DNA of 64,000 nt from Terracidiphilus sp. (GCA_050010795.1 JBEKKI010000008.1:38222-102221), one strand, 5' to 3'; positions 6,458 through 59,466 are shown, numbered from the stretch's first letter. Notes: generated from the sequence alone by a model not told the origin. Made by a program: numbers and translations.

Positions 6458-7351
6458 CTACGATCCCAGCTCCTGCCCGGTCAACCGGCTAAAGGCTTCA
6501 AGATACTTCTGCCGCGTCCGCTCCACAACTTCATCCGGCAAACTCGGAGCGGGCGCCTGCTTGTTCCAGCGGATTTCTTCCAGGTAGTCGCGTACAAACT
6601 GCTTGTCAAACGATGGCTGCGCCCCTCCCGGCTTCCAGGCCTTTCCTTCCCAGAAACGCGACGAATCGGGCGTCAATACCTCATCGGCAAGGATAATCCC
6701 TCCGGCGATTTTGCCAAACTCAAATTTTGTGTCCGCAAGAATCAGCCCGCGGCTTTCGGCGTGCTCCACTGCGCGCTGGTAGATTTTCAGCGTCAACCGC
6801 CTGAGCTCCGCGGCCTCCTGCGCCCCGACCAGATTCTCCACGGCCGAATAGGGGATGTTCTCGTCATGCTCGCCGTCCTGGCTCTTCGTCGCAGGCGTAA
6901 AAATCGGCGCAGGCAGCCGCGACCCATCCTGCAGGCCCGGCGGCAGCTTGATTCCGCACACCGTTCCCGATTCCTTGTACTCCTTCCACCCCGATCCCGC
7001 CAGATACCCGCGCACCACGCACTCCACCGGGAACATGGCGGCGCGCTTCACCAGCATCGAACGCCCCGCCAGTTGATCGCAGTATGGCTGAAGGATCGCC
7101 GGAAACTCCTTCACGTCCGCCGTGAGGAGGTGATTGGGGACGATCGGCTTCAGCTTCTCGAACCAGAACAGCGAAATCTGTGTCAGGATTCTGCCCTTGT
7201 CCGGAATCCCCGATCCCAGAACGTGATCGAACGCTGAAATCCGGTCCGTGGCCACCAGCAGGAGCGCGTCGCCTACGGCGTACAAGTCGCGCACCTTGCC
7301 TCGCCCCAGCAACGGCACGTCACCAAGGCTCGTTTTCAGCAGAGCTGCCAT
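6458..7351 (-). CDS. purC: SAICAR synthetase
   Basis: GKVRDLY, ATDRISAFD, ECVVRGYLAGSG, ADTKFEFG, DEVLTPDSSRFW, FDKQFVRD. Confidence 0.98.
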   Translation of the reverse strand: MAALLKTSLGDVPLLGRGKVRDLYAVGDALLLVATDRISAFDHVLGSGIPDKGRILTQISLFWFEKLKPIVPNHLLTADVKEFPAILQPYCDQLAGRSMLVKRAAMFPVECVVRGYLAGSGWKEYKESGTVCGIKLPPGLQDGSRLPAPIFTPATKSQDGEHDENIPYSAVENLVGAQEAAELRRLTLKIYQRAVEHAESRGLILADTKFEFGKIAGGIILADEVLTPDSSRFWEGKAWKPGGAQPSFDKQFVRDYLEEIRWNKQAPAPSLPDEVVERTRQKYLEAFSRLTGQELGS

Positions 7352-7696
7352 GCGGAATCTCCCCTGAGGAATCGAATCTCAGATTTTCGAGCCGAAAACT
7401 CACTTTGTCAACCATGATCGCGGCCGTACGCAGACCCATGGTTCGCCCCCTGGAATATCTTATATCCCGCTCCCTTTGTAGGGCCTCACCTTCATGTCAG
7501 GCCCGGAATGGCGGGTATTCCCGGCCTTTTCCCTTGATACAGACTCCTGTGACGGTCGTCACGGACCGCCGTCTCCGCATCGGTGACACTGTGACTGTCA
7601 ACATGGTTCGGAGGGTGTGTAAGAAAGCCCTCTTTGAGCCGGGCGACACGAGGCAGCAGTGGAAAGGGGAAGCCGCGGCTAGTCTCGTTTAATGCA

Positions 7697-7749
7697 GGGA
7701 TCACCAGTAGCCGCGCGCTACCGACCTCCAGTGCCGGCTACTGGTCCCC
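7697..7749. repeat. Imperfect palindrome (REP-like hairpin)
   Basis: ggga-tca-ccagtagccg ... cggctactgg-tccc. Confidence 0.6.
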
Positions 7750-7779
7750 GTCTTTATCTTGTGTAATTTGACCTACAAG

Positions 7780-7818
7780 CGCCTCCGAAGCGAAGGTTTC
7801 CTTCGGGGGCGATTTTTT
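7780..7818 (+). terminator. Intrinsic terminator oriented on the + strand
   Basis: Stem cgcctccgaag / cttcgggggcg followed by a-tttttt. Confidence 0.7.
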
Positions 7819-44104: not shown

Positions 44105-47100
44105 TTACGAGGTCGCTCCCTCTGCCGTCGAGGGCAGCGCGTCGTGTGTCCGCCCCAGCGCTCGCAGGCGCAGGCGGTCCATCATCAGGTAGATAACGGG
44201 TGTGGTGTAAAGCGTCAGCGCCTGGCTCAACAGCAATCCGCCCACGATGGTGATGCCCAGCGGCCTGCGCAGTTCCGAGCCGGTGCCTGTCCCAAAGGCC
44301 AGCGGCAGCGCTCCGCAAATGGCCGACATGGTCGTCATCATGATGGGGCGGAAGCGAAGCAGGCACGCCTCAAAAATCGCCTCACGTGTTGTCTTGCCTT
44401 CGTTGCGCTCGGCCTGCAGCGCGAAATCGATCATCATGATCGCATTCTTCTTCACAATGCCAATAAGCAGAATGATTCCGATAATCGAGATCACGTTCAG
44501 GTCGATGTGAAACAGCATAAGAGCCAGCATGGCCCCAACGCTGGCCGAGGGAAGCGTGGAAATGATCGTCAACGGGTGAACCAGGCTCTCGTAGAGAATC
44601 CCCAGGACAATAAAGACCGCAAGCAATGCGGTGGCCACAAGATACTTCTCGCTTGATAGCGAATCCTGGTAGGCCTGCGCGGTTCCCGCGAAAAATCCGC
44701 GCACCGACGATGGCATCCCCAGCCTCTGCTCCATCTGCGTCACCTCTCGCGTCGCATCGCTCAATGAAGCGCCACTCTTCAAATTGAATGACACGGTGGC
44801 CGAGGGGAAGAGTCCGGTGTGCGGCACCTGCAGCGGCGTCGTATTCGTGCTCTGCTTCATCACGGTGGCCAGCGGCGCCATCGCGTTGAGTCCCGCGGAT
44901 GCCGACCTGTTTGTCGTGAAATAAATATTGTTCAGGTCCGACGGATCCTGCCAGTATTGCGGCGCAACTTCCATCACTACGTAGTACTGATTCAGCTGCG
45001 TGTAGATCACCGAAACTTCTGATTGGCAGAAGGCGCTGCAAAGTGAACTATTGAGCGACGATGGAGTTTGCCCCAGCCGCGCCGCGGTTATGCGATCGTA
45101 GTTCAGCATCTCCTGCAGGCCGCCATTCTGCTGGTCGGTGTTCACATCGGTCAGATCGGGCAGCCTCTGCATGTTCTGATAAAGGATCGGCCCCCAGTGC
45201 GACAGGTCGTCGATGTTGTCGGACTGAATCGTGTATTGATAAAGCGCATTCGAGCCGCGCCCGCCTATGCGCAGATCCTGGGCCGGCTGCAATATGCCCG
45301 TGGCAAGCGGCAGCCGGTTCATCTTCGGCCGAAGGCGATTGATCACGTCCATCGCCGAAGTCTGACGCTCATCGCAATTCGGTGCGCTTTCTTTGCACTT
45401 GGTTCCCAGCGCTTTGAGCGCAACGAACATGAAGCCGCCATTCCCGCTGCCCGTGTAAGCCATGACGTGGGCCACGGCGGGATCGGCCTTCACAATGTTG
45501 ACGTACGACAGGGTCGAGAAGCTCATAAAGGGGAAGGAAGCGTCCTGCGGTCCCTGCAACCCTCCCATGATGACGCCTGTGTCCTGCTGCGGGAAGAACC
45601 CGGTGGGGATCCTGTAAATCACGAGCCCATTCAGCGCGATGGTGAGAAGCAGCACCACCAGAGTCAGGCCCGGATTATCCAGCACCCACAGCAGCGAATG
45701 ACGGTAAATGGAGATCATGCCGTCGAACATCTTTTCGCTGGCCCGGTAAAGCCAATTGTGCTTTTCGCCTTCTTTGTGCGCTCTCAGCACGTGCGCGCAC
45801 ATGCAAGGCGTCGTTGTGAGCGAAATGACCATCGAAATCAGAATGGCCGTCGACAGGGTCACCGCAAATTCCCTGAAAAGGCGCCCGATGATTCCTCCCA
45901 TCATCAGGATGGGAATAAAGACGGCGATCAGCGACATGCTGATTGAAAAGACGGTGAAACCGATCTCCTGCGCTCCCTGCAATGCTGCCGCAAACGGCTC
46001 CATCCCGGCTTCCAGGTGCCGCGTGATGTTTTCCATTACCACGATCGCATCGTCAACAACGAATCCCGTGGCGATGGTGAGCGCCATCAGCGACAGGTTG
46101 TCGAGCGTGTAGCCGAGCAGGTACATCATGGCGAAGGTGCCGATGAGCGAAACCGGAACAGCCACACTGGGAATCAGCGTGGCGCGCGGACTGCGCAGGA
46201 AGACGAAGACCACCAGGATCACAAGGCAGACGGACCCTACAAGCGTTTTCTCAACGGTGTTGACCGAGGCGCGAATCGTGGTGGTGCGGTCGAGAACGAC
46301 GGTGGTCTTGATGCCCTGCGGCATCACCGCTTCGAGAAACGGCAATTGCGCCTTGACGCGATCGACGGTCTGAATGATGTTGGCTCCGGGCTGACGGAAG
46401 ATGACGAGGACGACCCCTCTCCTTCCGTCCACGTAGCCCGCGGAACGCAGATTCTGCGTCGAATCCTCCACGTCGGCGACATCGGAAAGCCGGACAGCTG
46501 CTCCATTGTGATAGCCCACGATCAGTGGCCGGTAGTCGGCAGCCTCCGAGATCTGATCGTTGGTGAGAATATCCTCGCTCACGCCGTTGTTCGAGAATTG
46601 GCCGCGTGGCTCGTGCGAGTTCTGCAGGCTCAGCACCGATCGCACGCCGCCGAGCGTCAGCCCGAAGCTTTCCAGCTTGGTGGGATTGACCTCTACGCGG
46701 ACCGACGGCGTGGCGGCGCCCTGCACTCCCACCTGCCCGACGCCCTGAATCTGCGAGAGCTTTTGCGCCAGGATCGTCGAGGCAAGGTCGTAGAGCTTCG
46801 TCACCTCGTATTTATCCGATGTCAGACTCACGAGCATGATGGGTGAATCGGCGGGGTTCACCTTACGGTAAGAAGGATTGGAGGGCAGATTTGCCGGAAG
46901 ATACGTTCGCGCCGCGTTGATAGCGGCTTGCACATCCCGCGCCGCGCCGTCGATGTTCCGGCTCAGGTCGAACTGCATGGTGATGTTGGTCGAGCTGAGC
47001 GAACTCGACGAGGTCATCTCCGTGATGCCTGCGATGTGGCTGAATTGGCGCTCCAGCGGCGTGGCCACTGAGGCTGCCATGATCTGTGCGCTCGCGCCCG

Positions 47101-47254
47101 GCAGTCCGGCCTGGACGCTGATCGTCGGAAAATCCACCTGCGGCAGCGGCGCCAGCGGCAGCACCACGAACGCAATCGCGCCCACGATGGCTACGGCAGC
47201 CGTGAGCAGCGTAGTGCCCACGGGGCGCCGGATGAATGGCGCCGACAGGTTCAT
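44105..47254 (-). CDS. mdtC: RND transporter permease, MdtC-like
   Basis: FIRRPVGTTLL, GFVVDDAIVVMENI, GIVKKNAIMMIDF, RFRPIMMTT. Confidence 0.92.
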   Translation of the reverse strand: MNLSAPFIRRPVGTTLLTAAVAIVGAIAFVVLPLAPLPQVDFPTISVQAGLPGASAQIMAASVATPLERQFSHIAGITEMTSSSSLSSTNITMQFDLSRNIDGAARDVQAAINAARTYLPANLPSNPSYRKVNPADSPIMLVSLTSDKYEVTKLYDLASTILAQKLSQIQGVGQVGVQGAATPSVRVEVNPTKLESFGLTLGGVRSVLSLQNSHEPRGQFSNNGVSEDILTNDQISEAADYRPLIVGYHNGAAVRLSDVADVEDSTQNLRSAGYVDGRRGVVLVIFRQPGANIIQTVDRVKAQLPFLEAVMPQGIKTTVVLDRTTTIRASVNTVEKTLVGSVCLVILVVFVFLRSPRATLIPSVAVPVSLIGTFAMMYLLGYTLDNLSLMALTIATGFVVDDAIVVMENITRHLEAGMEPFAAALQGAQEIGFTVFSISMSLIAVFIPILMMGGIIGRLFREFAVTLSTAILISMVISLTTTPCMCAHVLRAHKEGEKHNWLYRASEKMFDGMISIYRHSLLWVLDNPGLTLVVLLLTIALNGLVIYRIPTGFFPQQDTGVIMGGLQGPQDASFPFMSFSTLSYVNIVKADPAVAHVMAYTGSGNGGFMFVALKALGTKCKESAPNCDERQTSAMDVINRLRPKMNRLPLATGILQPAQDLRIGGRGSNALYQYTIQSDNIDDLSHWGPILYQNMQRLPDLTDVNTDQQNGGLQEMLNYDRITAARLGQTPSSLNSSLCSAFCQSEVSVIYTQLNQYYVVMEVAPQYWQDPSDLNNIYFTTNRSASAGLNAMAPLATVMKQSTNTTPLQVPHTGLFPSATVSFNLKSGASLSDATREVTQMEQRLGMPSSVRGFFAGTAQAYQDSLSSEKYLVATALLAVFIVLGILYESLVHPLTIISTLPSASVGAMLALMLFHIDLNVISIIGIILLIGIVKKNAIMMIDFALQAERNEGKTTREAIFEACLLRFRPIMMTTMSAICGALPLAFGTGTGSELRRPLGITIVGGLLLSQALTLYTTPVIYLMMDRLRLRALGRTHDALPSTAEGATS

Positions 47255-50200
47255 GCATTCTCCGTGCCCGGCTTGGCTTCAGCGCGGGCCGTCCGCGAAA
47301 GGTGGTGTCCCATCATGCGCTGGCCGAGCCGGTCAAAGAAGATGTAGATCACCGGCGTGGTGTAGAGAGTGAGTAATTGGCTCAGGATCAGCCCCCCAAC
47401 CATCGCAATGCCCAACGGCCGGCGCAGCTCCGAACCCAGCCCTGTTCCGGCCGCCAGCGGAATACCTGCCAGCAGAGCGGCCATCGTCGTCATCATGATG
47501 GGGCGGAATCGCAAAACGCTGGCCTCGTAAATCGCTTCTGTTGAATCCATGCCGCGCTGGCGCTCGGCCTCCAGGGCAAAGTCCACGATCAGAATTCCAT
47601 TTTTGTTCACGATGCCGATCAGCAGAATGATGCCGATGATGCCCACCGCGTTCAGATCCTGCCGGCAGACGATAAGCGCCAGCAGCGCGCCCACGCCCGC
47701 CGACGGCAGCGTCGAAAGAATCGTCACCGGATGAATGAAGCTTTCGTACAGAACGCCGAGCACGATGTAAACGGTAACCAGCGCGGCGAGAATCAGCAGC
47801 GCTTGGTTGGAAAGCGAATTGCGAAACGACGCCGCAGTCCCCTGAAAATCGGATTGCAGGCTGGCGGGGAAGTGGAGGTTCTTGACTACTTTCTCGATGT
47901 CGCTGATCGCCGTGCCCAGCGACGCGTTCGGCGCAAGATTAAATGAAACCGTAACCGACGGAAACTGCCCTTGATGGTTGATCGAAAGAGCCTCGGTAGT
48001 GTCGTGGACCTGCGTAAAGGCGCTCAGGGGAATGGCGTTCGTGCCAGCCGAAGAAGATGCCGTGTTGGGCGATCCGACGCCCGTCGCGCCGCGCGCCAGA
48101 ACCGACGCCGGGGCGCTCAAAGCCTGCGAAGAAGGCGTATAGCGCACTGAAGTCGTCAATGCATTCGATCCCGCCGACGCCGATGCCGACGAGGAGAACG
48201 ACGTTGCTGCGCCCGCCCCCGTCGCCCCCGACGAGGCGTTCGACTGAATGTAGAGATCGCCCAGCTTGCTCGGATCCTGCTGCCACTCCGGCGCCGCCTC
48301 CAGCACCACGTGATACTGATTCAGCTGCGTGTAAAGTGTGCTGATCTGCCGTTGGCCGAACGCATCGTAAAGCGTGTTGTCGACGGTCGTCGGCGCAATG
48401 CCCAGCCGCGACGCGGTCACGCGGTCGATCGACATCTGTATCGCTTTGGCGCCGGTCTGCTGATCCGTCGCCACGTCTTCCAGCTCGGGCAGTTTCTCGA
48501 GCTGCGCGGTAAACTTGTCCGTCCAGGAATTCAGCTCGTCCGTGTCGGGATCCTCGAGCGTGTACTGATACTGCGTCCGGCTCACGCGGTCGTCCACCGT
48601 GATGTCCTGCACCGGCTGCATGTAAAGGCGCATCCCGTGCACCTGGCTCAGGTTCTTCTGCAGCCTGCGGATCACATCCGACGCGCTGATGTGCCGCTCC
48701 TCGATGGGCTTCAGGTTGATCGAAATGCGTCCGCTGTTCAGCGTGGTGTTGATTCCGTCGGCGCCGATGAACGACGACAGGCTCTCCACCGCCGGATCCT
48801 GAAGAATGGTCTGCGCCAGCTCCCGCTGCTTCTCGCTCATGGCGTTGAACGAGATCGACTGTGATGCCTGCGAAATTCCCTGGATTACTCCCGTATCCTG
48901 CACCGGGAAGAATCCCTTGGGAATTTCGATGTAGAGGACGATCGTGAGCACCAGCGTGGCCACGGCCACCAGCAGCGTAATCGGTTGGTAGCGCAGCACA
49001 ACCTTCAGCGTGCGCCCGTAGAACGCAATCAGTCCGTTCACCGCGCGCTCCGACGCCTGGTAGATGCGGCCCTCCTGCTCCTTGGGTTTGTGGCGCAGAA
49101 TGCGCGAGCACATCATGGGAGTCAGGGTGAGCGAGACCACCGCTGAAATTACGATCGTGACGGCCAGCGTGATCGCGAATTCGCGGAACAGCCGCCCCAC
49201 AACATCGCCCATGAAGAGCAGCGGAATCAGCACCGCCACCAGCGAAACGGTCAGCGACATGATGGTGAAGCCGATCTGGCCCGCGCCGGTCAGCGCGGCC
49301 TCCAGCGGCGGCATGCCCGACTCGAGGAACCGGCTGATGTTCTCGATCATCACGATGGCGTCGTCCACCACAAAGCCCGTGGAAATCGTCAGCGCCATCA
49401 GCGACAGATTGTCCAGCGAATAGCCCAGCAGGTACATCACGGCAAAGGTGCCGATCAGCGAAAGCGGAACCGCCACGCTGGGTATGATCGTGGCCCGCAG
49501 GCTGCGCAGGAACAGAAAAATCACCATCACAACCAGCACGATCGTCAGCATCAGCTCGAACTCCACGTCGTGCACCGACGACTGAATGCTGGTGGTCATG
49601 TCGGTCAGAGTCGTCACCTTGATTGACGCCGGCAGATTGGCTTCAAGTTGCGGCAGCACCTTCTGAATGGCGTTCACTACCGTGATCGTGTTCGCGCCCG
49701 GTTGCCGTTGGATGTTCAGAATGACAGCCGGCGTCATATCCATCCATGCCGCCTGCTTGCTGTTCTCAACTCCGCTCAGCACGTTGGCCACGTTCTTCAC
49801 GAACACCGGCGCGCCGTTGCTGTAGGCGATCACCACGTTCTTGTAGTCGTCGGGACTGGTGATCTGGTCGTTGGCGTCAATCTGGTAGTCCTGGCGCGGT
49901 CCATCGAAGTTGCCCTTCGCCGAGTTCACGCTGGCCTGGGTCAGGGCCGTGCGCACATCCTCCATGTTCAAACCGTAGGCCGACAACGCCACTGGGTTCA
50001 CCTGGATGCGCACTGCGGGCTTCTGCCCGCCGCTGATGCTCACCATGCCCACGCCGTTCAGCTGCGAGAGCCGCGGTGCCAGCCGCGTGTCCACCATGTC
50101 CTCCACTTGTGACAGCGGCAGAGAGTCTGACGTGATGGCCAGCGTCAGAACGGGTGCGTCGGCGGGATTGGTCTTTGTGTACACCGGCGGCACCGGAATG

Positions 50201-50565
50201 TCCGAAGGAAGGAACGTCTGCCCGCCGTTGATCGACGACTGCACCTCTTCTTCGGCAACGTCGAGGCCGAGCGAGAGGCTGAATTGAAGAACGATGACCG
50301 AGACGCCGCCCGCGCTGGTCGACGTCATCTGGCTCAGCCCCTGCATCTCGCCAAACTGGCGCTCCAGCGGCGCAGTGATCGTCGTCGCCACCACGTCGGG
50401 GCTCGCCCCAGGATAAAAAGTCACCACCTGGATCGTCGGATAGTCCACCTGCGGCAGGGCCGACACAGGCAGTTGAAAGAATGCAACCAGTCCCGCAAGC
50501 AGAATTGCGGCCATCAGAAGCGACGTTGCGACCGGCCGCAGAATGAATGGTCGCGATGGACTCAT
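47251..50565 (-). CDS. mdtB: RND transporter permease, MdtB-like
   Basis: MSPSRPFILRPVATSLLM, LPQVDYPTIQV, GFVVDDAIVMIENI, RFRPIMMTT. Confidence 0.93.
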   Translation of the reverse strand: MSPSRPFILRPVATSLLMAAILLAGLVAFFQLPVSALPQVDYPTIQVVTFYPGASPDVVATTITAPLERQFGEMQGLSQMTSTSAGGVSVIVLQFSLSLGLDVAEEEVQSSINGGQTFLPSDIPVPPVYTKTNPADAPVLTLAITSDSLPLSQVEDMVDTRLAPRLSQLNGVGMVSISGGQKPAVRIQVNPVALSAYGLNMEDVRTALTQASVNSAKGNFDGPRQDYQIDANDQITSPDDYKNVVIAYSNGAPVFVKNVANVLSGVENSKQAAWMDMTPAVILNIQRQPGANTITVVNAIQKVLPQLEANLPASIKVTTLTDMTTSIQSSVHDVEFELMLTIVLVVMVIFLFLRSLRATIIPSVAVPLSLIGTFAVMYLLGYSLDNLSLMALTISTGFVVDDAIVMIENISRFLESGMPPLEAALTGAGQIGFTIMSLTVSLVAVLIPLLFMGDVVGRLFREFAITLAVTIVISAVVSLTLTPMMCSRILRHKPKEQEGRIYQASERAVNGLIAFYGRTLKVVLRYQPITLLVAVATLVLTIVLYIEIPKGFFPVQDTGVIQGISQASQSISFNAMSEKQRELAQTILQDPAVESLSSFIGADGINTTLNSGRISINLKPIEERHISASDVIRRLQKNLSQVHGMRLYMQPVQDITVDDRVSRTQYQYTLEDPDTDELNSWTDKFTAQLEKLPELEDVATDQQTGAKAIQMSIDRVTASRLGIAPTTVDNTLYDAFGQRQISTLYTQLNQYHVVLEAAPEWQQDPSKLGDLYIQSNASSGATGAGAATSFSSSASASAGSNALTTSVRYTPSSQALSAPASVLARGATGVGSPNTASSSAGTNAIPLSAFTQVHDTTEALSINHQGQFPSVTVSFNLAPNASLGTAISDIEKVVKNLHFPASLQSDFQGTAASFRNSLSNQALLILAALVTVYIVLGVLYESFIHPVTILSTLPSAGVGALLALIVCRQDLNAVGIIGIILLIGIVNKNGILIVDFALEAERQRGMDSTEAIYEASVLRFRPIMMTTMAALLAGIPLAAGTGLGSELRRPLGIAMVGGLILSQLLTLYTTPVIYIFFDRLGQRMMGHHLSRTARAEAKPGTENA

Positions 50566-51803
50566 GGAGTGGCCCCGCTCGCTGAGATCGGAATCGTCAC
50601 CTTCGAGATCACGATGTCTGATCCGTCCATCAGCTTCTGGAAGCTGCTGTTTGCCACCACGTCTCCGGGATTGATCCCCGTTACCGCAGTGTTGCCTCCG
50701 TCGGAGATTCCCGACTTTACGGTCTTCATCGCCGCCTTGTTGTTCTGGATCAGGTAAACGAAGTCAGCTGCGCCGTTGTGCTGGATCGCTGAAGCAGGAA
50801 CGAGCGTCTGGTTATCCAGCGTCTTCACCAGCAGGCGCGTATTCACAAATTCATTGGGGAAGAGCATTCCATTCGGGTTGCTGAATTCCGCGCGCAGCTT
50901 CACCGTCCCCGTCACCGTGTCGATCTGGTTATCCACGGTGATTAACCGCCCCTTTGCCAGAAGCGTCTGCTGCGTGCGGTCATATGCCTCCACCGTCAGC
51001 GGCTTGCCGCCGCGCATCTGTTCCAGCACTTCCGGCAGGTTGTCTTCCGCCAGCGTGAAGATCACGGTGATCGGCTGGATCTGCGCAACTGTCAGCAGCG
51101 GCGTGCTCGAGTTGGCCGTCACCAGGTTGCCCGGATCCACCAGCCGCAATCCCACGCGCCCGTCGATCGGAGAAGCGATGTGGCAGAACGCCACTTGAAC
51201 TTCGTCATACTGCACGTTTCCCTGGTCGTTCTTCACGGTGCCTTGATTCTGCAGCACCACCTTCTCCTGGTCCTCCAGCGTTTGCCGTGGGATCGCGTTC
51301 TTCGCCCACGCATCCTGGTAGCGTTTCAGGTCCATCTGCGCTTCGGCCAGCAGATTCTGGTCGCGATCCAGCGCGCCTTGCGCCTGCGCCAGTTGCGCCG
51401 CGTAAGGCCGCGAGTCGATATCGATGAGCGGATCGCCTTTATGAACGCTCTGCCCCTCGCGATAGTGGACAGCCGTGATCACGCCCGTCACCTGCGCGGT
51501 GATGGTGTCGAGGTTCGTCGGTGTCACTGTTCCGATGGCGTCAAGATAAACGCCGATGGAGCCCGCCTTGGCCGTGGCCACCGTAACGGGTACGGGCCCT
51601 CCCATTGCGGCCCCGCCTCGGCGAACGCCTCCCGCGCCCGCGGTGGCAGATGCGCTCGCGCTATGCTGCCTCCACACCCACACGAACAGCAGCGCAAAAA
51701 GCAGGAGAATAATCACCCAGATCCAGCGGTGGCGGCGTTTTTTTGTGGAATCTTCGGGCGCTTGCCCGGCGGCAGGATGCGATGCAAACAAAGGTTGATC
51801 CAT
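50562..51803 (-). CDS. mdtA: RND membrane fusion protein, MdtA-like
   Basis: TM anchor, SPIDGRVGLRLVDPGN, DNQIDTVTGTVKLRA. Confidence 0.92.
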   Translation of the reverse strand: MDQPLFASHPAAGQAPEDSTKKRRHRWIWVIILLLFALLFVWVWRQHSASASATAGAGGVRRGGAAMGGPVPVTVATAKAGSIGVYLDAIGTVTPTNLDTITAQVTGVITAVHYREGQSVHKGDPLIDIDSRPYAAQLAQAQGALDRDQNLLAEAQMDLKRYQDAWAKNAIPRQTLEDQEKVVLQNQGTVKNDQGNVQYDEVQVAFCHIASPIDGRVGLRLVDPGNLVTANSSTPLLTVAQIQPITVIFTLAEDNLPEVLEQMRGGKPLTVEAYDRTQQTLLAKGRLITVDNQIDTVTGTVKLRAEFSNPNGMLFPNEFVNTRLLVKTLDNQTLVPASAIQHNGAADFVYLIQNNKAAMKTVKSGISDGGNTAVTGINPGDVVANSSFQKLMDGSDIVISKVTIPISASGATP

Positions 51804-52101
51804 CGTCTTTTTGTCTCGTTTGTTTGACTAAAACCACTCGGCTTAATAAGGACATTTTCTCACAATCGAATTGGCGTCAGACTGTGCAGGCCGTCACGCT
51901 TGCATCGCACGCCCGATTCGAGAATGCGGTCCTGGATGCGGAATCGCCGGTCGATTCAGAGCAGGCCGCGGTTCAGGTTTGGCGCGGCAACTTCAGTCCG
52001 TCCAGGCATAACTCAACCTGCCGCGCACAGGCACGTAATTCTATGGACGTGGCAACCCGTCGAATAGTTGCAGAACGTGCTCGCGACTGGGAATCAGCCG
52101 C

Positions 52102-52200
52102 TCATTTTCGCAAAATCGACCCGGCTGCCATCGCATGGTAAACCCCGCCATCGACCACAGCGATCCCGTTGATCAGCACATGCTCGACGCCCGCCGGATT
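52102..52200 (-). pseudogene. C-terminal 32-codon remnant of an amidohydrolase (D-aminoacylase-like)
   Basis: Not in the ORF track. Translates NPAGVEHVLINGIAVVDGGVYHAMAAGSILRK*, matching the P-GI-HVLVNG-VV-DG---G--LR tail of that family. No start codon and no catalytic barrel. Confidence 0.7.
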
Positions 52201-53170
52201 ACGCAAAATCCAGGGAAGTCCTTCGCCAGGGGGAGACGATGTGGGTACCTCCATTGCCGATTACCGCACTCGCTACGTTCTCCACGGAGGTGATAATGCA
52301 CTCCTCGCCTCGGTTTTCGAGGAAGTCGATTGCCGCCTGGATTTTCGGCCCCATCGACCCCGGTGGGAATTGGCCTGCCGCCAGATACTCGCGCGCCTGG
52401 TCCATGGTGATCGTGTCGAGCCATTTCTGGCTGGGCCGGCCATAGTCGAGCGCTACGCGATCAACTGATGTAACAATGACGAGCTTGTGAGCGCGCACGT
52501 GCGTCGCCAGCATGCTTGATGCCAGGTCCTTGTCGACAACGGCTTCCACACCCACTAAACGATCGTCTTCCCAGGCCACCGGAATCCCCCCGCCTCCGCA
52601 GGCGATCACGACGACGCCGGCGTCGAGCAGCGATGAGATCGCTTCGGCCTCTAGAATTTGCATCGGGAGTGGCGAAGGCACGACGCGACGGTAGCGTCCC
52701 GGAGAGACTTCGCGCATGATCCAGTCTGGCCTGTCGCTGCGGATGCCGGCCAGCTCGCTCGCGTCATAAAAAGACCCGATCGGCTTGCTCGGATGCTGGA
52801 AGTCCGGGTCGTCGCGATCCACGAGCACCTGGGTGATCAGCGTAGCCACTTCGCGCTTGATTCCCTCGCGACGGAACAACTCGCAAACCAGCCGCTGGAT
52901 CATGTAGCCCATGCCGCCCTGGCAATCGGCGTCGCAGGTGTCGAGCGGCAAGCGCGGAACGCGCCGCTCGCCCTCCTCGACGCGAATCAGGATGTTGCCG
53001 ATCTGCGGTCCGCTGCCGTGGGTGATGGCGATTCGTGAACCGGCGTGGAACAGGGGCTTGAGATGCTCGAGCGTCTCCGCAGTGTGGGCAAACTGCAAGG
53101 GAATGGTGCCGGGTTCGCCGGGCCTGGTAATGGCGTTACCGCCCAGGGCGATCACAAGAGTTTCGGTCAT
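52199..53170 (-). CDS. arcC: Carbamate kinase
   Basis: IALGGNAI, THGSGPQIG, QGGMGY, RRVVPSP, CGGGGIPV, EAVVDKDLAS, FPPGSMGPKI. Confidence 0.96.
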   Translation of the reverse strand: MTETLVIALGGNAITRPGEPGTIPLQFAHTAETLEHLKPLFHAGSRIAITHGSGPQIGNILIRVEEGERRVPRLPLDTCDADCQGGMGYMIQRLVCELFRREGIKREVATLITQVLVDRDDPDFQHPSKPIGSFYDASELAGIRSDRPDWIMREVSPGRYRRVVPSPLPMQILEAEAISSLLDAGVVVIACGGGGIPVAWEDDRLVGVEAVVDKDLASSMLATHVRAHKLVIVTSVDRVALDYGRPSQKWLDTITMDQAREYLAAGQFPPGSMGPKIQAAIDFLENRGEECIITSVENVASAVIGNGGTHIVSPWRRTSLDFA

Positions 53171-53174
53171 GGTC

Positions 53175-54203
53175 TTAAGATCCTGTCATCTCGTAAACAA
53201 CTTCTTGGTCCGACATCGTCAGTGCCATGATCGCCTTGGCGGTATGCAGGCGGTTTTCCGCTTCCTGGTACACCACAGATTGCGGGCCATCGATGACATC
53301 GTCCGTCACCTCGTTGCCCCGATCGGCGGGCAGCGGATGCATGTACAGAGCATTCTCCGCAGCCAATTTCATGCGCTCGTTGTTGCAAATCCAGTGCCGG
53401 TATCCCTCGGCGATCCGCAGGGACTCCTTGGGGTTCGTTCCCATGGTGTCGAGACAGCCCCAGCTCTTGGGAATCACGATGTCAGCGCCGCGAAACGCGT
53501 CGTCCATGTTGTCCACGATCTCGAACTTGGTTCCGGCGCGCCGCGCGTTCTCTCGCGCCGCCTCCACCGTCTCCGGCATCAGCGCGTACTCGGGTGGATG
53601 CGCCAGCACCACGTCCAGTCCAAAGCGCGGCATCAACATGATCAGTCCTTGCGGCACGCTGAGCGGCTTGGCGTAGCTCGGCGCATACGCCCACGATACC
53701 GCCAGCTTGCGTCCGCTCAGGTTCCGTCCGAGTTTCTCGCGGATTGTCATCAGGTCGGCCAGCGTCTGGCAGGGATGGTCGATGTCGCCCTGCATATTGA
53801 TCACCGGCACATCCGCCCAGCGCGCAACTTCGCGCATGTACGCGTTGCCCTCGCCCGGAATCAGGTCGTGACGGATGGCGATCGCGTGCCCGTAGCTGGA
53901 GAGAATGATTCCTGTGTCCTTCGCGCTTTCGCCATGCGAGACCTGCATGACATCGGTGGTCAAAAAATGGGCGTGGCCGCCAAGCTGCGTGATTCCCGCC
54001 TCAAACGAGTTGCGCGTGCGCGTGGATTTGTCGAAGAACATCAGAAAGATGGTCTGATCGGGCAAATAACGATGCGGAACGCGCCCTTTGAACTTGCGCT
54101 TCAAATCGGCGGATACGTCGAGCAGGATTTCGATCTCTGCTTCGCTGTATTCTTCCGTAGTGATGTAGTCCTTGCCCTTAAAGAGCGCCTTTCTCGTTTC
54201 CAA
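53175..54203 (-). CDS. ygeW: YgeW-like knotted carbamoyltransferase
   Basis: KSTRTR, HPCQTLAD, MHPLPADRG, and the YgeW-type loop SWAYAPSYAKPLSVPQG. Confidence 0.82.
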   Translation of the reverse strand: METRKALFKGKDYITTEEYSEAEIEILLDVSADLKRKFKGRVPHRYLPDQTIFLMFFDKSTRTRNSFEAGITQLGGHAHFLTTDVMQVSHGESAKDTGIILSSYGHAIAIRHDLIPGEGNAYMREVARWADVPVINMQGDIDHPCQTLADLMTIREKLGRNLSGRKLAVSWAYAPSYAKPLSVPQGLIMLMPRFGLDVVLAHPPEYALMPETVEAARENARRAGTKFEIVDNMDDAFRGADIVIPKSWGCLDTMGTNPKESLRIAEGYRHWICNNERMKLAAENALYMHPLPADRGNEVTDDVIDGPQSVVYQEAENRLHTAKAIMALTMSDQEVVYEMTGS

Positions 54204-54236
54204 CGCACACCTCTTCCTCGATAGCCTTCATTCCGT

Positions 54237-55463
54237 TCAGCCATTCTCGCCTTCGAGCGTCGTGACGTACGCCAGGGGGAAGGCAGCATAGAACTGCGCC
54301 GCTTCCACCAGGTGGCGGATCGGGACGCGTTCGATGACACTATGCGCGACGTCTTCTTCACCGGGACCGAAGCCGATGGTCGGCACGCCCATCATTCCCA
54401 TCGAGCCGACGCCGTTGGTGCTGAAGGTCCACTTGTCCACAACTGGATCGGCGTTGTGGAGCGTTCGATACGCCGCCACGGCCGAGCGCACGAGCAAATG
54501 GTCTTCTTCGAGCACCCACGTTGGATAGTACTTCTGCATCGGATACGTGAGTCCGGTATAGCTGGGCGTCTCGTACTGCAACACCTCGATCTCCGCGCCT
54601 TGCGCCGCCGGCAGGGCTTTCACCTCGGCGACCGCGCTCTCGAGCGTCTCCCCGGCGGTCAGCCGGCGGTCAAGATGGATGGAGCATGCGCCCGGCACCG
54701 CGCACAGGGAAGGAGACATCGAGCGAATCTCGGTGACGGCGATTGTTCCCTTGCCGAGAAACGCATCGTCGCGCAAACGCGTGTTCAACTCCTCGATCTG
54801 CGCGATCATCGGGACTATCTTGTAAATCGGATTGTCGCCGCGCTCCGGCGCGCTGGCATGACACGAACGTCCGCGTATGTGAACCTCGATCTCCATGCGT
54901 CCGCGGTGTCCGCGGTACACGCGCAGATTGGTTGGCTCCGTGAGCACTACGCAGTCCGGCCGGATACCGTCCTCCTTGAGAATGTAGACCCACGCCAGGC
55001 CGTCGCAGTCTTCTTCCTGCACCGATCCCACGATCCACAAAGTGTAGTCGCCTTCCAGTTCCAAATCCTTGATCATCTTGCCCGCGTAAACCATGCTGGC
55101 CATGCCGGCGCGTTGATCGCTGGCGCCGCGTCCGTAGATGAAACCGTCCTCCACTTTGCCCTTGTACGGGTCCCAGGCCCATTCCTTCGGATCGCCAACG
55201 CCGACGGTGTCGGTGTGCGCGTCCATCATGATCACGTGTTTGCCTGAGCCGATGCGTCCCAGCACGTTGCCTATGGCATCAATGCGGATTTCGTCGAAGC
55301 CCACGCATTCCATCTCCTGCTTGATGCGCTGAACCACGGGACCTTCGTGGGAACTTTCGCCGGGAATGGCGACTAGGTCGCGCAGAAAGCGGACCATGTC
55401 CGCTTCCAGCGCGTTTGCGGCGGCGAGTAAACGGGCGGAGTCAATCGTAGTTTTATCAGGCAT
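54237..55463 (-). CDS. ygeY: YgeY-family M20 hydrolase
   Basis: MDAHTDTVG, GRGASDQRAG, VQEEDCDG, RGHRGRMEI, KWTFSTNG, GFGPGEE. Confidence 0.92.
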   Translation of the reverse strand: MPDKTTIDSARLLAAANALEADMVRFLRDLVAIPGESSHEGPVVQRIKQEMECVGFDEIRIDAIGNVLGRIGSGKHVIMMDAHTDTVGVGDPKEWAWDPYKGKVEDGFIYGRGASDQRAGMASMVYAGKMIKDLELEGDYTLWIVGSVQEEDCDGLAWVYILKEDGIRPDCVVLTEPTNLRVYRGHRGRMEIEVHIRGRSCHASAPERGDNPIYKIVPMIAQIEELNTRLRDDAFLGKGTIAVTEIRSMSPSLCAVPGACSIHLDRRLTAGETLESAVAEVKALPAAQGAEIEVLQYETPSYTGLTYPMQKYYPTWVLEEDHLLVRSAVAAYRTLHNADPVVDKWTFSTNGVGSMGMMGVPTIGFGPGEEDVAHSVIERVPIRHLVEAAQFYAAFPLAYVTTLEGENG

Positions 55464-55492
55464 GTTGATGACCTGCTGTTCGCGTTCTTGAT

Positions 55493-58078
55493 TCAGCACG
55501 GTTGTAATGCTCCTTTCTTGTTGCGACTGCGGCTGTAAGGCGTGTCGGCGAGCGGCAGGCTCGTGCGCAGCTTTCCGTCCCGCTGCCAATACGCGCACGC
55601 AATGGCCGGCGCCGTCGGAATGCTCACAATTTCGCCGATGCCCTTGGCGCCGTACGCCAACTCGGCCCGGTTCTTCTCGATAATCCGGCACTCGATCTCC
55701 GGCGTCTCGGTCGAGCGCAGAAGGCCGATCGTTCCGAACTTGACTGCAGGTGCGCCATTCTTTACAGCGAACTCTTCGGTCAGCGCATAGCCCATCCCCA
55801 TCACCACGCCGCCTTCGATCTGCCCCTCCACGCCATTCGGATTGATGGCCCGCCCTACGTCGTGCGCTGCCACCACCTTCATCACTTTGCCTGCCTCGTC
55901 AAGCAGCACCACCTGCGTCGCGTATCCGTACGATACGTGGCTCATGCGGTGCGGCTTGTCGCTCGTCATCGGGTCGGTCACGCAGTCGTACTCGCCGTGG
56001 AACTCTTGGCCCTCCAATTCCGCCAGCGCGTGACGGTTCAACTGCCGCCTAAGCTCGAGCGCCGCCCTTCGCGCCGCCTCGCCCGTAATCGTTGTCTGCC
56101 GCGAAGCAGTGCTGGTGCCGCTGTCCGGCGTCACGCTGGTGTCAGGCGCATGCACCGTGAGCATTGACTTGTCGACGCCCGCCGTTTCCGAGACAATCTG
56201 CAGCACCACCGTCGCGATCCCTTGACCCATGCACGCCGCGCTGGTCGAGATCGTCACCCGTCCGCCCTCCACTTTCAGCTTCACGCGGCCTACGTCCTTC
56301 ACCCCCACGCCCTTGCCTGTGTTCTTGAACGCGCACGCAATCCCCGCGTCGGGATGCGCATCGATCACGTCCTTCACGGCGAGCAGTGTCTCCTTCAGCG
56401 CCGTCCCCTCATCGGCGATCTGCCCGTTTGAAAGCACGCCGCCCGCCTCGATCGCGTTGCGGTAACGAATCTCCCACGGCGAAATTCCTGCCGCGTGCGC
56501 CAGCAGATTCAGGTTGCTCTCCATCGCGAAACACGTCTGTGTCACGCCGAACCCGCGCATCGCGCCCGACGGAATGTTGTTGGTGTAGATCGCCCGTCCC
56601 TCGATGTCGACATTCTCGATCCGGTACGGTCCAGCCGCGTGCGTGCACGCCCGCTGCAGCACCGGCCCGCCCAGCGACGCATACGCTCCCGTATCTGCCA
56701 CAATCCGCACCCGCGCCGCGGTCAGCTTGCCGTTCTCATCGCACGCCGTCGTGCATTCAATCTCCATCGGGTGCCGCTTGGGATGCACGCGCAGGCTCTC
56801 ATCGCGGCTCAGGGTCAGCTTCACGGGCCGTCCGCTCTTCCAGGCCAGCAGCGCCGCGTGATGCTGAACCGACATGTCTTCCTTCCCGCCAAACCCTCCG
56901 CCAACGAACTTGCTAACGACCCTCACCTTCTCGCCTTCCACTCCCAGCGTCCGCACAATCTCGCGATGATCGTCGTACACGCTTTGTCCCGCGGTATACA
57001 CCGTCAGCGATCCGGGCGCTCCCGGCACGGCCAGCGCACTCTCCGGCTCCAGAAACGCATGCTCCTGCCGCGGCGTGGAATAGCGCTGCGTCACCACATG
57101 CCTGGCCGCAGCAATCGCCCGCTCCGCATCGCCCCGCTTCAACACCGTCGTCGCCAGCACATTTCCTTCGAGATGCAGCTGCGGCGCTCCCTCAGCTAAT
57201 GCCGCCTGCGGTGAAAGCAGCGGCTCGCGCTCTTCGTATTCCACGCGGACAAGCTCGATCGCCTTCCTCGCCGCCTCCTTCGTTGTTGCCGCCACCAGGG
57301 CGAGCGCATCGCCCACGTATCGCGTCTCTTCTCCTTCGGCAATCATCACCGGCCAGTCGTAGACCACGTGCCCCAGCATTCGCTCGCCCGGCACGTCGCG
57401 CGCCGTCAGCACAATTTCAACGCCGGGCAGCGCCCGCGCCGCCGCCGCATCGATCCGCTTCACCAGCGCCCGCGGAAACCTCGCCCGCAGCACGGCGCCA
57501 TGCAACATGCCCTCCACGTGCATGTCATCGACAAATTCGCCCGTCCCCAGCAGCTTCTCTTTTGCTTCCGCACGCACCGTGCGCTCGCCCACGCGCGCTC
57601 CCGCCGCCTCCACGTCATGCACCCTGCCGTTGGCCAGAGCCCCCGCAGCCAGTTGAATCGCCCGCTCCACCTTCGCGTATCCCGTGCAGCGGCACAGGTT
57701 GTAGCGGATCGCCGACTTCACCTCCGCCGCTGTCGGCGCGGGATTCGCGTCCAGCAAAGCCTTCGCGCTCATCACCATGCCCGGCATGCAGAATCCGCAC
57801 TGCACCGCGCCCACTTCGCCGAAGGCCCACGCATACACCTCGCGCTCCCGCGGCGAAAGCCCCTCCACCGTCATCACCGATTTCCCGTGTACCCTGGCCA
57901 CAGTGAGCGTGCACGCGCGTGCCGCCTTGCCGTTCACGATCACGGAGCACGACCCGCACACTCCGTCGCCGCATCCGTTTTTGACTGAAGTCAGGCGCGC
58001 GTCCTCGCGCAGGTATTCGATCAGACTCTTGTCCGTCTCTGCCGCGGCCTCCCGCTGGTTTAGCGTGAAGCGGAACAT
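55493..58078 (-). CDS. Single-chain molybdenum hydroxylase (2Fe-2S plus Mo domains), selenium-dependent xanthine dehydrogenase type
   Basis: CGDGVCGSC, VQCGFC, CRCTGY, QEHAFLEPE, GGGFGGKED, AMRGFG, GAKGIGE. No FAD domain. Confidence 0.9.
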   Translation of the reverse strand: MFRFTLNQREAAAETDKSLIEYLREDARLTSVKNGCGDGVCGSCSVIVNGKAARACTLTVARVHGKSVMTVEGLSPREREVYAWAFGEVGAVQCGFCMPGMVMSAKALLDANPAPTAAEVKSAIRYNLCRCTGYAKVERAIQLAAGALANGRVHDVEAAGARVGERTVRAEAKEKLLGTGEFVDDMHVEGMLHGAVLRARFPRALVKRIDAAAARALPGVEIVLTARDVPGERMLGHVVYDWPVMIAEGEETRYVGDALALVAATTKEAARKAIELVRVEYEEREPLLSPQAALAEGAPQLHLEGNVLATTVLKRGDAERAIAAARHVVTQRYSTPRQEHAFLEPESALAVPGAPGSLTVYTAGQSVYDDHREIVRTLGVEGEKVRVVSKFVGGGFGGKEDMSVQHHAALLAWKSGRPVKLTLSRDESLRVHPKRHPMEIECTTACDENGKLTAARVRIVADTGAYASLGGPVLQRACTHAAGPYRIENVDIEGRAIYTNNIPSGAMRGFGVTQTCFAMESNLNLLAHAAGISPWEIRYRNAIEAGGVLSNGQIADEGTALKETLLAVKDVIDAHPDAGIACAFKNTGKGVGVKDVGRVKLKVEGGRVTISTSAACMGQGIATVVLQIVSETAGVDKSMLTVHAPDTSVTPDSGTSTASRQTTITGEAARRAALELRRQLNRHALAELEGQEFHGEYDCVTDPMTSDKPHRMSHVSYGYATQVVLLDEAGKVMKVVAAHDVGRAINPNGVEGQIEGGVVMGMGYALTEEFAVKNGAPAVKFGTIGLLRSTETPEIECRIIEKNRAELAYGAKGIGEIVSIPTAPAIACAYWQRDGKLRTSLPLADTPYSRSRNKKGALQPC

Positions 58079-59466
58079 TTTGCATGCTCCTCTTGAACGG
58101 CCGGCCGGTGTGCGCAAATCTTCTCGTTATACTCGCGCACCTTGGCGTATTGCGCGTCCCAAAAGCTCTGGCTGCGCATCGAGTCGAGAAACTCCTTCGT
58201 GTAACCGAACTTCAGCCAATCGTTTTCCTTTTGCTTGAAGAGCCGCTCTTTCGTCTCCGCCTTGCGAAAGTCAAAGACCTCGTCGCTTGACGCGTCGAGA
58301 AAGATGTCGCTCGCCCAACGGTCCAGCACCGTTGGTGTCAGCTCCAGGTAGCGGCCCTCCAGGTCGCGCAGCACGGAGTGGTAACGGTCAAACCCATCCG
58401 TTGCCACCGTCACCACGTTGTCCCCTGGGCCCAGCCGCAGATATTTCGCCAGCTTGATCGCGCCCAGCACGTTGCACACGCCCGACGGCCCGAACAGTTC
58501 CCGCAGTCCCAGCGCAAACTCCCGTTCCACGCCCATCCGCACCATGGTCTCCAGTCCGTCGTGGAAGATCTTCACGCCCTGCACCGTCTCTTCGTCCCTG
58601 ATCAGAATCACGAAGTCGGTATTGAGCACGTTGTGAATCAGCGTGCACATCTTGTCGCCGATGCCCTCGATGCGATGCTGCCCGCGGCCTCCGGTCGCCA
58701 GCGTGGAGCACTCATACGGCTCCAGTGCGGCCACCTTCGCCTCTGGAAACATCGCCTTGATCTGATCGCCCGCTGCAATCGTCCCCGCCGAGCCCGGCGC
58801 CGAGACAAAACCCGCGATCCGCCCGTTGCCCACGCCCTTTACCGCATCAGCTGCGCTCCCGCCCGTGACGTGCCGGTGAAACCGGTAGTTCGGGAACAGC
58901 TCGAATTGCGCCAGCGCCTTGTTTTTGGGGTTCTTCATCAGCTCGCGCGTTTTTTCGAGCGTCAGGATCACGTCCGACTCCGTGCCCGGCGTCAGCTCCA
59001 GTTCTCCTCCGTACTTCCTGATGCGCTCGTAACGCTCCTTGCTCATGTTGTCCGGCATGATCACGATCGCGCGGAAGCCCAGCAGCTTCGAGATGTACGC
59101 GGTCCCAATGCCGAAATTGCCCGTCGACGGCCCCAGTATCGTGTGCTCGCCCGGCACGATCTCTCCATCCACCAGCGCTTCCATCAGCGTCGAGTACGCC
59201 GCGCCTACCTTGTGCGAACCGGAAGGAAATCGGTTCCCGAGCATCACCACCACGTTCGCGGCCACGCCCGTCAGCGCCGAGGGCAGCACCACCTTCCGCA
59301 TCTCGTTGGCCGCATCGCGCCAGTTGATGTTGAACAGATTGATCGGATCGAGCTCGTCCTTGTCGAGCGCCTCAAGCGCCCTTGCGCGCACGCTCTTATC
59401 GATCAATCCCGGGTTGAGCATCTCGTCGTAACTGGGACCCATCGGAACTTTCGCCATCGTTCTCAC
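58060..59466 (-). CDS. Fold-type-II PLP enzyme (cysteine-synthase-like) of unknown function
   Basis: PSGSHKVG (PLP Lys), STGNFG, PGSAGT phosphate loop, HRIEGIG. C-terminal extension of roughly 90 aa. Confidence 0.82.
   Translation of the reverse strand: MRTMAKVPMGPSYDEMLNPGLIDKSVRARALEALDKDELDPINLFNINWRDAANEMRKVVLPSALTGVAANVVVMLGNRFPSGSHKVGAAYSTLMEALVDGEIVPGEHTILGPSTGNFGIGTAYISKLLGFRAIVIMPDNMSKERYERIRKYGGELELTPGTESDVILTLEKTRELMKNPKNKALAQFELFPNYRFHRHVTGGSAADAVKGVGNGRIAGFVSAPGSAGTIAAGDQIKAMFPEAKVAALEPYECSTLATGGRGQHRIEGIGDKMCTLIHNVLNTDFVILIRDEETVQGVKIFHDGLETMVRMGVEREFALGLRELFGPSGVCNVLGAIKLAKYLRLGPGDNVVTVATDGFDRYHSVLRDLEGRYLELTPTVLDRWASDIFLDASSDEVFDFRKAETKERLFKQKENDWLKFGYTKEFLDSMRSQSFWDAQYAKVREYNEKICAHRPAVQEEHAKCSASR

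Follow-up and report, generated by a model that had tools for sequence, protein, structure and literature searches.

The window (the whole 64-kb stretch of DNA analysed here) carries a run of minus-strand genes that encode, in this order, a UacX/PreA-like flavoprotein, a ThrC-like PLP protein, a CysK-like PLP protein, a selenium-dependent xanthine dehydrogenase family protein (XDH), YgeY, a YgeW-like carbamoyltransferase and a carbamate kinase (ArcC). The gene for SsnA is divergent from this run, and an efflux operon that includes a membrane-fusion protein (the MFP-RND operon) lies downstream. A short relic frame is located between arcC and this operon (Table 1). Its genes mark the cluster as a variant of the one for reductive (2,8-dioxopurine) urate degradation (PMC12507026; bioRxiv 10.1101/2025.04.24.650524). 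Related genomes are Terracidiphilus and Acidobacteriaceae MAGs from peat and soil.

Table 1. Features of the locus, with positions in the window
Feature	Position	Strand	Basis
Membrane-fusion protein (MFP) gene of the RND efflux operon, right backbone flank	50562..51803	-	Pfam HlyD families; synteny with the intact-amidohydrolase genomes L110-L112
Intergenic DNA upstream of the MFP gene	51804..52101	-	Aligns with relatives
TGA closing the relic frame	52102..52104	-	Alignment with relatives
uacY' relic, last 31 codons (about residues 500-530) of a D-aminoacylase-type amidohydrolase	52105..52197	-	Translation, tblastn, relics of relatives, DNA alignment
Junction of the 522-bp deletion specific to the window; contains the new arcC stop TAA (52199-52201)	52198..52204	-	Alignment, blastn
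arcC, carbamate kinase, 323 aa	52199..53170	-	NF009007; C-termini of 80 orthologues
ArcC native C-terminal extension SPWRRTSLDFA, motif W-x3-S/N-L/M-x-F	52202..52234	-	C-termini of orthologues
Putative swapped-in cassette, ygeY + ygeW-like + arcC	52199..55469	-	Identity to L021, identity profile, pair medians
ygeW-like carbamoyltransferase gene, 342 aa, cassette	53175..54203	-	OTCace_N and OTCace domains
ygeY, M20 hydrolase, cassette; start taken as ATG 55463	54237..55463	-	TIGR03526, alignment
ygeYb' relic, first 8 codons VLNQEREQ, start mutated to GTG; left junction	55476..55499	-	Alignment with L110-L112 (MLTHEREQ...)
Selenium-dependent xanthine dehydrogenase family gene, left backbone flank	55493..58117	-	TIGR03311, 1341 bits

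YgeY scores 581.7 bits with TIGR03526, for which the cut-off is 321.5. ArcC passes the cut-off of NF009007 (329.8 bits vs 266) and is just below that of TIGR00746 (351 vs 358). The carbamoyltransferase contains both domains of the OTCase fold and is called ygeW-like by context only, its scores being below the YgeW cut-offs (249.8 vs 453 for NF005538 and 233.3 vs 500 for TIGR03316; NCBIfam YgeW models match at 4.6e-74). As in the YgeW + YqeA module of E. coli and gut anaerobes, the genes for the carbamoyltransferase and the carbamate kinase are adjacent and lie beside ygeY in a urate cluster. Unlike that module, the window has a carbamoyltransferase of 342 aa that stays under the curated cut-offs, an ArcC with a clade-specific C-terminal extension, and a cluster that includes no HyuA or YgeX gene.

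On the minus strand, in a frame other than that of arcC, an open stretch runs from about 52260 to the TGA at 52102-52104. The translation of 52197..52105 is PAGVEHVLINGIAVVDGGVYHAMAAGSILRK, followed by the TGA. When the intact 536-aa amidohydrolase of the congener G021 was used as the tblastn query, 16 of these 31 residues (52%) were identical to its residues 500-530, with an E-value of 5.9e-5 against the whole window and 1e-8 locally. Longer remnants stand at the identical position in five relatives and, over the same stretch, share 52-68% identity with the relic (E down to 7e-10); the flanking DNA aligns colinearly on both sides. The relic frames of the relatives continue for 3-6 codons beyond the TGA of the window, so this TGA may not be the original stop. 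An earlier reading of the window, made from the sequence only, had proposed that an unannotated frame ending at 52102 encodes a D-aminoacylase-type C-terminus. Both matches bear this out, and the synteny check downstream of arcC that it called for indeed finds longer amidohydrolase remnants at the identical position in relatives.

The homologous 31 codons start just 3' of the arcC stop. The first ~21 residues of the open frame (52198-52260) are the 3' end of arcC read out of frame; they are non-homologous and match the relatives solely because the arcC DNA is conserved. Thus the suggestion that the ArcC tail overlaps the remnant holds for the open frame and fails for the homologous codons, which lie outside arcC.

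A GC-rich open frame might merely resemble the C-terminus of an amidohydrolase. The stretch is just 31 residues long, and the 52-aa peptide alone has no match in Pfam and only chance matches, to BLIP-II (E > 1), among PDB sequences. This peptide is too short for profile searches. Since it matches nothing in either database on its own, the evidence for the relic comes from orthologues and synteny. The E-values against the window and the relics of relatives, together with the exactly syntenic site between colinear flanks, make a chance resemblance hardly conceivable; synteny already refutes it.

The similarity of the relic to a protein of PF07969 (Amidohydro_3) is significant. The relic corresponds to the final beta-strands of D-aminoacylase (1M7J) and N-acyl-D-glutamate deacylase (3GIP), with the pattern G-I-x-x-V-x-V-N-G...G...G-x-x-L-R. 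Unlike in these enzymes, the catalytic barrel is wholly absent: a complete TIM-barrel with metal-binding residues is not there, as only the last 31 of ~536 codons are left. Residues 1-499 have no homologue in the window or in the rest of the genome, which is 99.6% complete. The relic is a gene fragment, not a member enzyme, and presumably has no function now.

The window ArcC ends with ...GTHIVSPWRRTSLDFA* (minus strand ...GNGGTHIVSPWRRTSLDFA-TAA). The sequence-only reading took the tail SPWRRTSLDFA for an odd product of fusion with the remnant. However, the same kind of tail is found in orthologues. ArcC proteins of Terracidiphilus end with ...GTHIV(A/S)PWRRTSLDFA(EVSGGAR), that of Bryobacteraceae (78% identity) with ...APWGRANLEFSQ, and those of Terriglobia (62-70% identity) with ...AAWGNRSLAFNAP, ...ASWGHRSLAFPLPQP and ...GFWAGGQLMFPP... 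A tail of the W-x3-S-L-x-F type is kept in orthologues of 62-95% identity, many of them from genomes without an amidohydrolase relic. The W, L/M and F positions persist while the codons change, so the conservation is at the protein level. Judged by these orthologues, the tail is native and extends past the usual GT-x-I end. In four Terracidiphilus-like sequences (L033, L035, L058 and L064) ArcC ends with GTHIVA(P/R), directly ahead of the tail; in L033, where similarity runs on beyond the stop, the tail therefore looks dispensable.

Intact copies of the amidohydrolase gene exist in congeners. Full-length proteins, 78-100% identical to that of G021, are encoded in 13 of 301 sampled genomes of the genus. 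In G021 the gene (G021:C1:671463-673067) lies directly 3' of an M20 gene. The neighbourhoods of ten intact-gene genomes (G021 and nine others) have the order SsnA / PreA-ThrC-PLP2-XDH-M20-Amid in all cases where the contig extends so far, and in G272, G301 and G119 the intact gene is followed by the same MFP-RND operon as in the window. The full intact locus thus reads SsnA / UacX-ThrC-like-CysK-like-XDH-YgeYb-Amid-MFP-RND. As both the cluster order and the downstream operon are shared, the MFP flank being common to the two, the intact-gene loci and the window locus are orthologous. The backbone proteins PreA, ThrC, PLP2 and XDH of the ten genomes are 64-86% identical to those of the window (XDH 75-86% in both cluster types). 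The M20 protein encoded before the intact amidohydrolase, which we designate YgeYb, is merely 32-36% identical to the window YgeY; it passes the cut-off of NF009555 only (478.6 vs 321).

The G021 amidohydrolase belongs to PF07969 by profile search. Its best PDB matches are N-acyl-D-glutamate deacylase (3GIP/3GIQ; 2.8e-77 for 3GIP) and D-aminoacylase (1M7J), with E-values from 1e-75 to 1e-77. The intact amidohydrolases occur without ygeW or arcC; in particular, G021 has no arcC. According to Li and co-authors (2025, Life Metab, PMC12507026), C. difficile has a D-aminoacylase homologue, UacY, in place of YgeW and YqeA. In all ten congeners the D-aminoacylase homologue is encoded together with SsnA, XDH, UacX and YgeY, and neither YgeW nor carbamate kinase belongs to the cluster. 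The congener protein shares with C. difficile UacY the family PF07969 and the nearest solved structure (Bordetella 3GIP/3GIQ), and the clusters have in common SsnA, an XDH homologue, UacX and YgeY, with YgeW and carbamate kinase absent from both. By homology and gene context, the amidohydrolase of the congeners, and hence the lost gene, would be of the UacY type. Its substrate would differ from those of D-aminoacylase and N-acyl-D-glutamate deacylase, a ureido acid being the probable one. In contrast to C. difficile, the window keeps 31 codons only, and the intact form, found only in congeners, is likened to UacY by family and context. The hosts differ as well: they are peat-soil Acidobacteriota, a phylum absent from the SsnA-bearing phyla named in the results text of PMC12507026.

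The window YgeY, YgeW-like protein and ArcC are 62-84% identical to their counterparts in clusters of Bryobacteraceae and Terriglobia, which have the order XDH'-YgeY-(Fe-S protein)-YgeW-ArcC-SsnA-PLP2. In clusters of this type (L048 2990-5005; L037, L041) a 670-760-aa protein, for which the Pfam matches are 4Fe-4S dicluster domains only, is encoded between ygeY and ygeW; it is absent from the Terracidiphilus cassette.

Both ends of the cassette carry truncated genes. At the right junction in L015, L016, L018, L021 and L034 the arcC stop overlaps (ATGA) the start of a frame with the N-terminus M(I/N)LTNARILTLDRDNSVFDSGSVKIRKDGSIG. This N-terminus is 69% identical (E 4e-10) to the product of the ssnA gene that lies directly 3' of arcC in Bryobacteraceae, and it is fused to codon ~355 of the amidohydrolase, from where the frame continues to the gene end. 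At the left junction 8 codons of the resident ygeYb are retained after the XDH stop. In relatives they are followed by a 3' stub of the donor xdh' (...AVINTVYHAIGIRFRKLPVRPEDV; E from 1e-12 to 1e-14). The cassette of the window is 3.27 kb long, and the donor xdh' and ssnA' end pieces have been lost from this genome. The direction of the swap can be inferred from the truncated genes, resident and donor, that border the insert. A mechanically predicted 484-aa "ygeY" ORF (GTG 55691; window 55463-55691) overlaps the end of xdh. It is an artefact, because its frame reads through the 8-codon ygeYb stub, the homologous start being ATG 55463.

The following course of events is proposed. The ancestral Terracidiphilus locus would have been SsnA / UacX-ThrC-like-CysK-like-XDH-YgeYb-UacY, followed by the MFP-RND operon. 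A foreign segment from a Bryobacteraceae/Terriglobia-type cluster (XDH'-YgeY-FeS protein-YgeW-ArcC-SsnA) would then have overwritten ygeYb from codon ~9 and uacY up to codon ~355. Such a segment would have contained the donor xdh' 3' stub, ygeY, the ygeW-like gene, arcC and codons 1-31 of the donor ssnA, and its arrival would have left an ssnA'(1-31)::uacY'(355-536) chimera behind arcC. Very probably, then, the 31 codons are the leftover of a UacY-type gene that was overwritten by a ygeY-ygeW-arcC cassette, so that they mark the exchange of one module for another in a pathway that is not broken. What is shown directly is that the relic is homologous, that the locus is orthologous, where the two junctions lie, that the decay is nested and that cassette and flanks differ in divergence. 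We also considered the reverse course, in which a precise deletion from a ygeY-ygeW-arcC-...-uacY ancestor produced the ygeYb-uacY arrangement. It was rejected given the 32-36% identity between YgeYb and YgeY and the donor xdh' and ssnA stubs that flank the cassette.

The sequence-only reading had offered another model: an intact gene of ~1.5 kb stood behind arcC, most of it went in one deletion, by which the tail became joined to arcC, and a hydantoinase-like step was lost. In its favour, arcC does end at a deletion junction, no further D-aminoacylase homologue is encoded in the genome, and the cluster contains no HyuA gene. However, none of the 79 arcC loci has an intact amidohydrolase after arcC, and the intact copies follow ygeYb without any ygeW or arcC. 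The longest relics already begin at codon ~355, fused to the ssnA stub. The ArcC tail is kept in distant orthologues, the enzyme appears to be of the UacY type and not a hydantoinase, and HyuA is absent from both versions of the cluster, a dihydropyrimidinase being encoded on contig C33. We therefore regard the single deletion as highly unlikely. What stands of it is that the other ~500 codons are gone and that a deletion junction lies exactly at the arcC end. Synteny contradicts the idea that the gene once stood intact behind arcC: the insertion of the cassette would have truncated it at codon ~355, and a 522-bp deletion would have followed.

This second deletion is visible in blastn, where window position 52199 adjoins both 6972 and 7495 of L021. 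The alignment resolves the breakpoint to about +/-5 bp, with no clear microhomology assignable. The deletion removed ArcC residues 324-330, the arcC stop, the ssnA' stub and amidohydrolase codons 355-499. For ArcC this meant the loss of the last seven, variable residues (EVSGGAR) and the supply of a new TAA, so that the protein has 323 aa vs 330 aa in close relatives. The sister of the window on the XDH tree, L018 (support 99), retains the long relic; the deletion is therefore lineage-specific. In the proposed course it would be the further step that left the last 31 uacY codons; the TAA where the two sequences meet would be fortuitous.

The assembly, a MAG of 109 contigs, could hide a longer remnant or an intact gene if it were collapsed or mis-joined here. 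Against this, the sequence at the junction is unique and lies within a contig of 128 kb, no other contig of the assembly (99.6% complete) contains the missing 522 bp, the relic is cut by other deletions in more than 10 independently assembled relatives, and arcC is in frame with a clean stop. An assembly artefact is thus very improbable. An exact search of metagenome contigs with a 30-mer of the junction gave 0 matches; an 18-mer gave 18 matches, all by chance, which share at most 20 nt with the window.

The fate of the chimera varies among the relatives. As a 203-aa frame it is open in L018 and L021, is interrupted by a stop in L016 and by frameshifts in L015 and L034, and carries different deletions in L017, L022, L027, L030, L031 (= G017) and the window. 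The spacing from arcC to the MFP gene ranges from ~0.4 to ~2.3 kb. Hairpin-rich inserts, which resemble small mobile repeats (MITE-like), split the relic of L030 (about 7190-7800). Extra DNA was also seen between ygeW and arcC (~1.4 kb; L018 4577-6001), between ygeY and ygeW (~0.6 kb; L015 and L035 4353-4968) and between arcC and the MFP gene (1.4-2.3 kb; L017, L029 and L038).

The remnant might still serve as a small protein (the 50-aa ORF at 52102-52254, or the 203-aa chimera of relatives) or as a regulatory leader of the RND operon. In L018 and L021 the chimera is open and translationally coupled to arcC through the ATGA overlap, and dN/dS between relics is 0.07-0.14, which looks like selection. 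However, the chimera is broken or deleted in most cassette genomes. Most of the catalytic region is missing from it, because it begins only at residue ~355 and the part of the intact protein to which the D-aminoacylase and N-acyl-D-glutamate deacylase chains mainly align is ~6-296. In the window, the 50-aa ORF begins with 21 residues of out-of-frame arcC, and a scan of 51700-52350 revealed no sigma-70-type promoter or intrinsic terminator. Furthermore, dS of the chimera (0.8-1.6) equals that of the flanks, while dS of the cassette is 0.06-0.39. The low dN/dS of the relics must therefore have been earned while the gene was whole, and the simplest reading is that the relics diverged as parts of working genes until recently. 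The argument that a dN/dS of ~0.1 makes the long relics functional was rejected for the same reason, as cassette dS is 4-10 times lower and most copies are broken. A present function of the remnant seems most doubtful to us.

The divergence of the cassette differs from that of its surroundings. Between the window and L021 the cassette is 93.8% identical over 3272 bp, and the flanks are 79.8% and 81.9% identical (blastn). In identity profiles, the stretch between the ygeY start and the ssnA' stub stands out with sharp bounds at 91-99%, the flanks being at 68-89%. Across 22 cassette genomes (231 pairs), the median DNA identity of cassette genes is 91%, and 82% at third codon positions. For PLP2, XDH, MFP and RND1 in the same pairs the medians are 76-80%, and 53-58% at third positions. 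The dS values of YgeY, YgeW and ArcC are those given above for the cassette (0.06-0.39), vs 0.8-1.5 for the flanking XDH and MFP. On the XDH tree, cassette genomes and intact-amidohydrolase genomes interleave, and the well-supported branches force at least 4 changes of state. The cassette thus combines low divergence against both flanks, boundaries at its own ends and a non-clade distribution of its carriers, as a horizontally spread segment would. The contrast in identity and the interleaving point to recent spread between species. In the window, 46715-47384 is 93.9% identical over 670 bp to L021 12300-12969, vs ~82% around, at the RND1/RND2 boundary; this suggests further recombination between these lineages outside the cassette.

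Both in-situ displacement by an analogous gene and gene-specific sweeps through recombination between species are known concepts. As in these, the resident module gives way in place to an analogous enzyme module, and the new segment is far less diverged than the flanks across species. The difference is that both ends of donor and recipient genes are still visible here as stubs, so the event can be reconstructed base by base. The junctions may have arisen once, and the cassette would then have spread among diverged species by homologous recombination with crossovers near its ends. On balance we lean towards the view that peat-soil Terracidiphilus species are being swept by the ATP-yielding ygeY-ygeW-arcC cassette through homologous recombination, and that the purely hydrolytic ygeYb-uacY module is overwritten at identical junctions on every occasion. 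The ATP gained in addition per urate degraded is the likely driver.

The biochemical background comes from two studies. In the presence of HyuA, either UacY or YgeW with phosphate converts ureidomethyl-hydantoin to albizziin; UacY and YgeW give the same product and replace each other between species, UacY being the hydrolytic alternative (PMC12507026). YgeW and YqeA yield ATP from 2,3-diureidopropionate by phosphorolytic cleavage (Liu et al. 2025, bioRxiv 10.1101/2025.04.24.650524). UacY takes the same step by hydrolysis. By analogy, the ureido-cleaving step of the lost gene is probably performed now by the YgeW-like protein and ArcC of the cassette. Because these and UacY would be alternative cleavages of the same ureido group, the pathway appears to be upgraded and not incomplete. 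Because YgeW with carbamate kinase would do the same cleavage and yield ATP, the chimera would be useless and so erode differently in each lineage.

The sequence-only reading had suspected that the lost gene supplied a hydantoinase-like step and that the pathway is incomplete or decaying in this strain. Neither suspicion agrees with the data. The lost gene looks like uacY instead, and another contig of this genome, C33, encodes a dihydropyrimidinase/hydantoinase (TIGR02033, 620 bits). All cluster genes other than the amidohydrolase are intact, and dN/dS of the cassette genes is mostly 0.1-0.25 (up to 0.66 for two ygeY pairs), to which the published interchange of UacY and YgeW may be added. 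The contig C33 gene is part of an operon of the reductive pyrimidine type (G000:C33:44500-49600; L120 2537-7622), which encodes a nitrilase-family amidase, a PreT-like protein, PreA and the dihydropyrimidinase. This operon could supply the hydantoinase (HyuA-like) step missing from the urate cluster.

Two annotations should be corrected: the ArcC tail is native, and the 484-aa "ygeY" ORF overlapping xdh is a read-through of the ygeYb stub. The relic alone is an ordinary remnant of a known kind, and its value is that of a marker. The reductive urate cluster is present in soil Acidobacteriota, and at a single locus within one genus, anaerobic urate degradation appears to have changed from the hydrolytic UacY route to the one through carbamoyltransferase and carbamate kinase. 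Such a swap provides independent evolutionary support for the biochemical claim of 2025 that UacY and YgeW are interchangeable. The low divergence of the cassette offers a concrete case for studying how a metabolic upgrade spreads between species. If the proposed sweep is real, the uacY stubs, including the 31 codons in the window, would be datable footprints of an ongoing, cross-species, gene-specific sweep.
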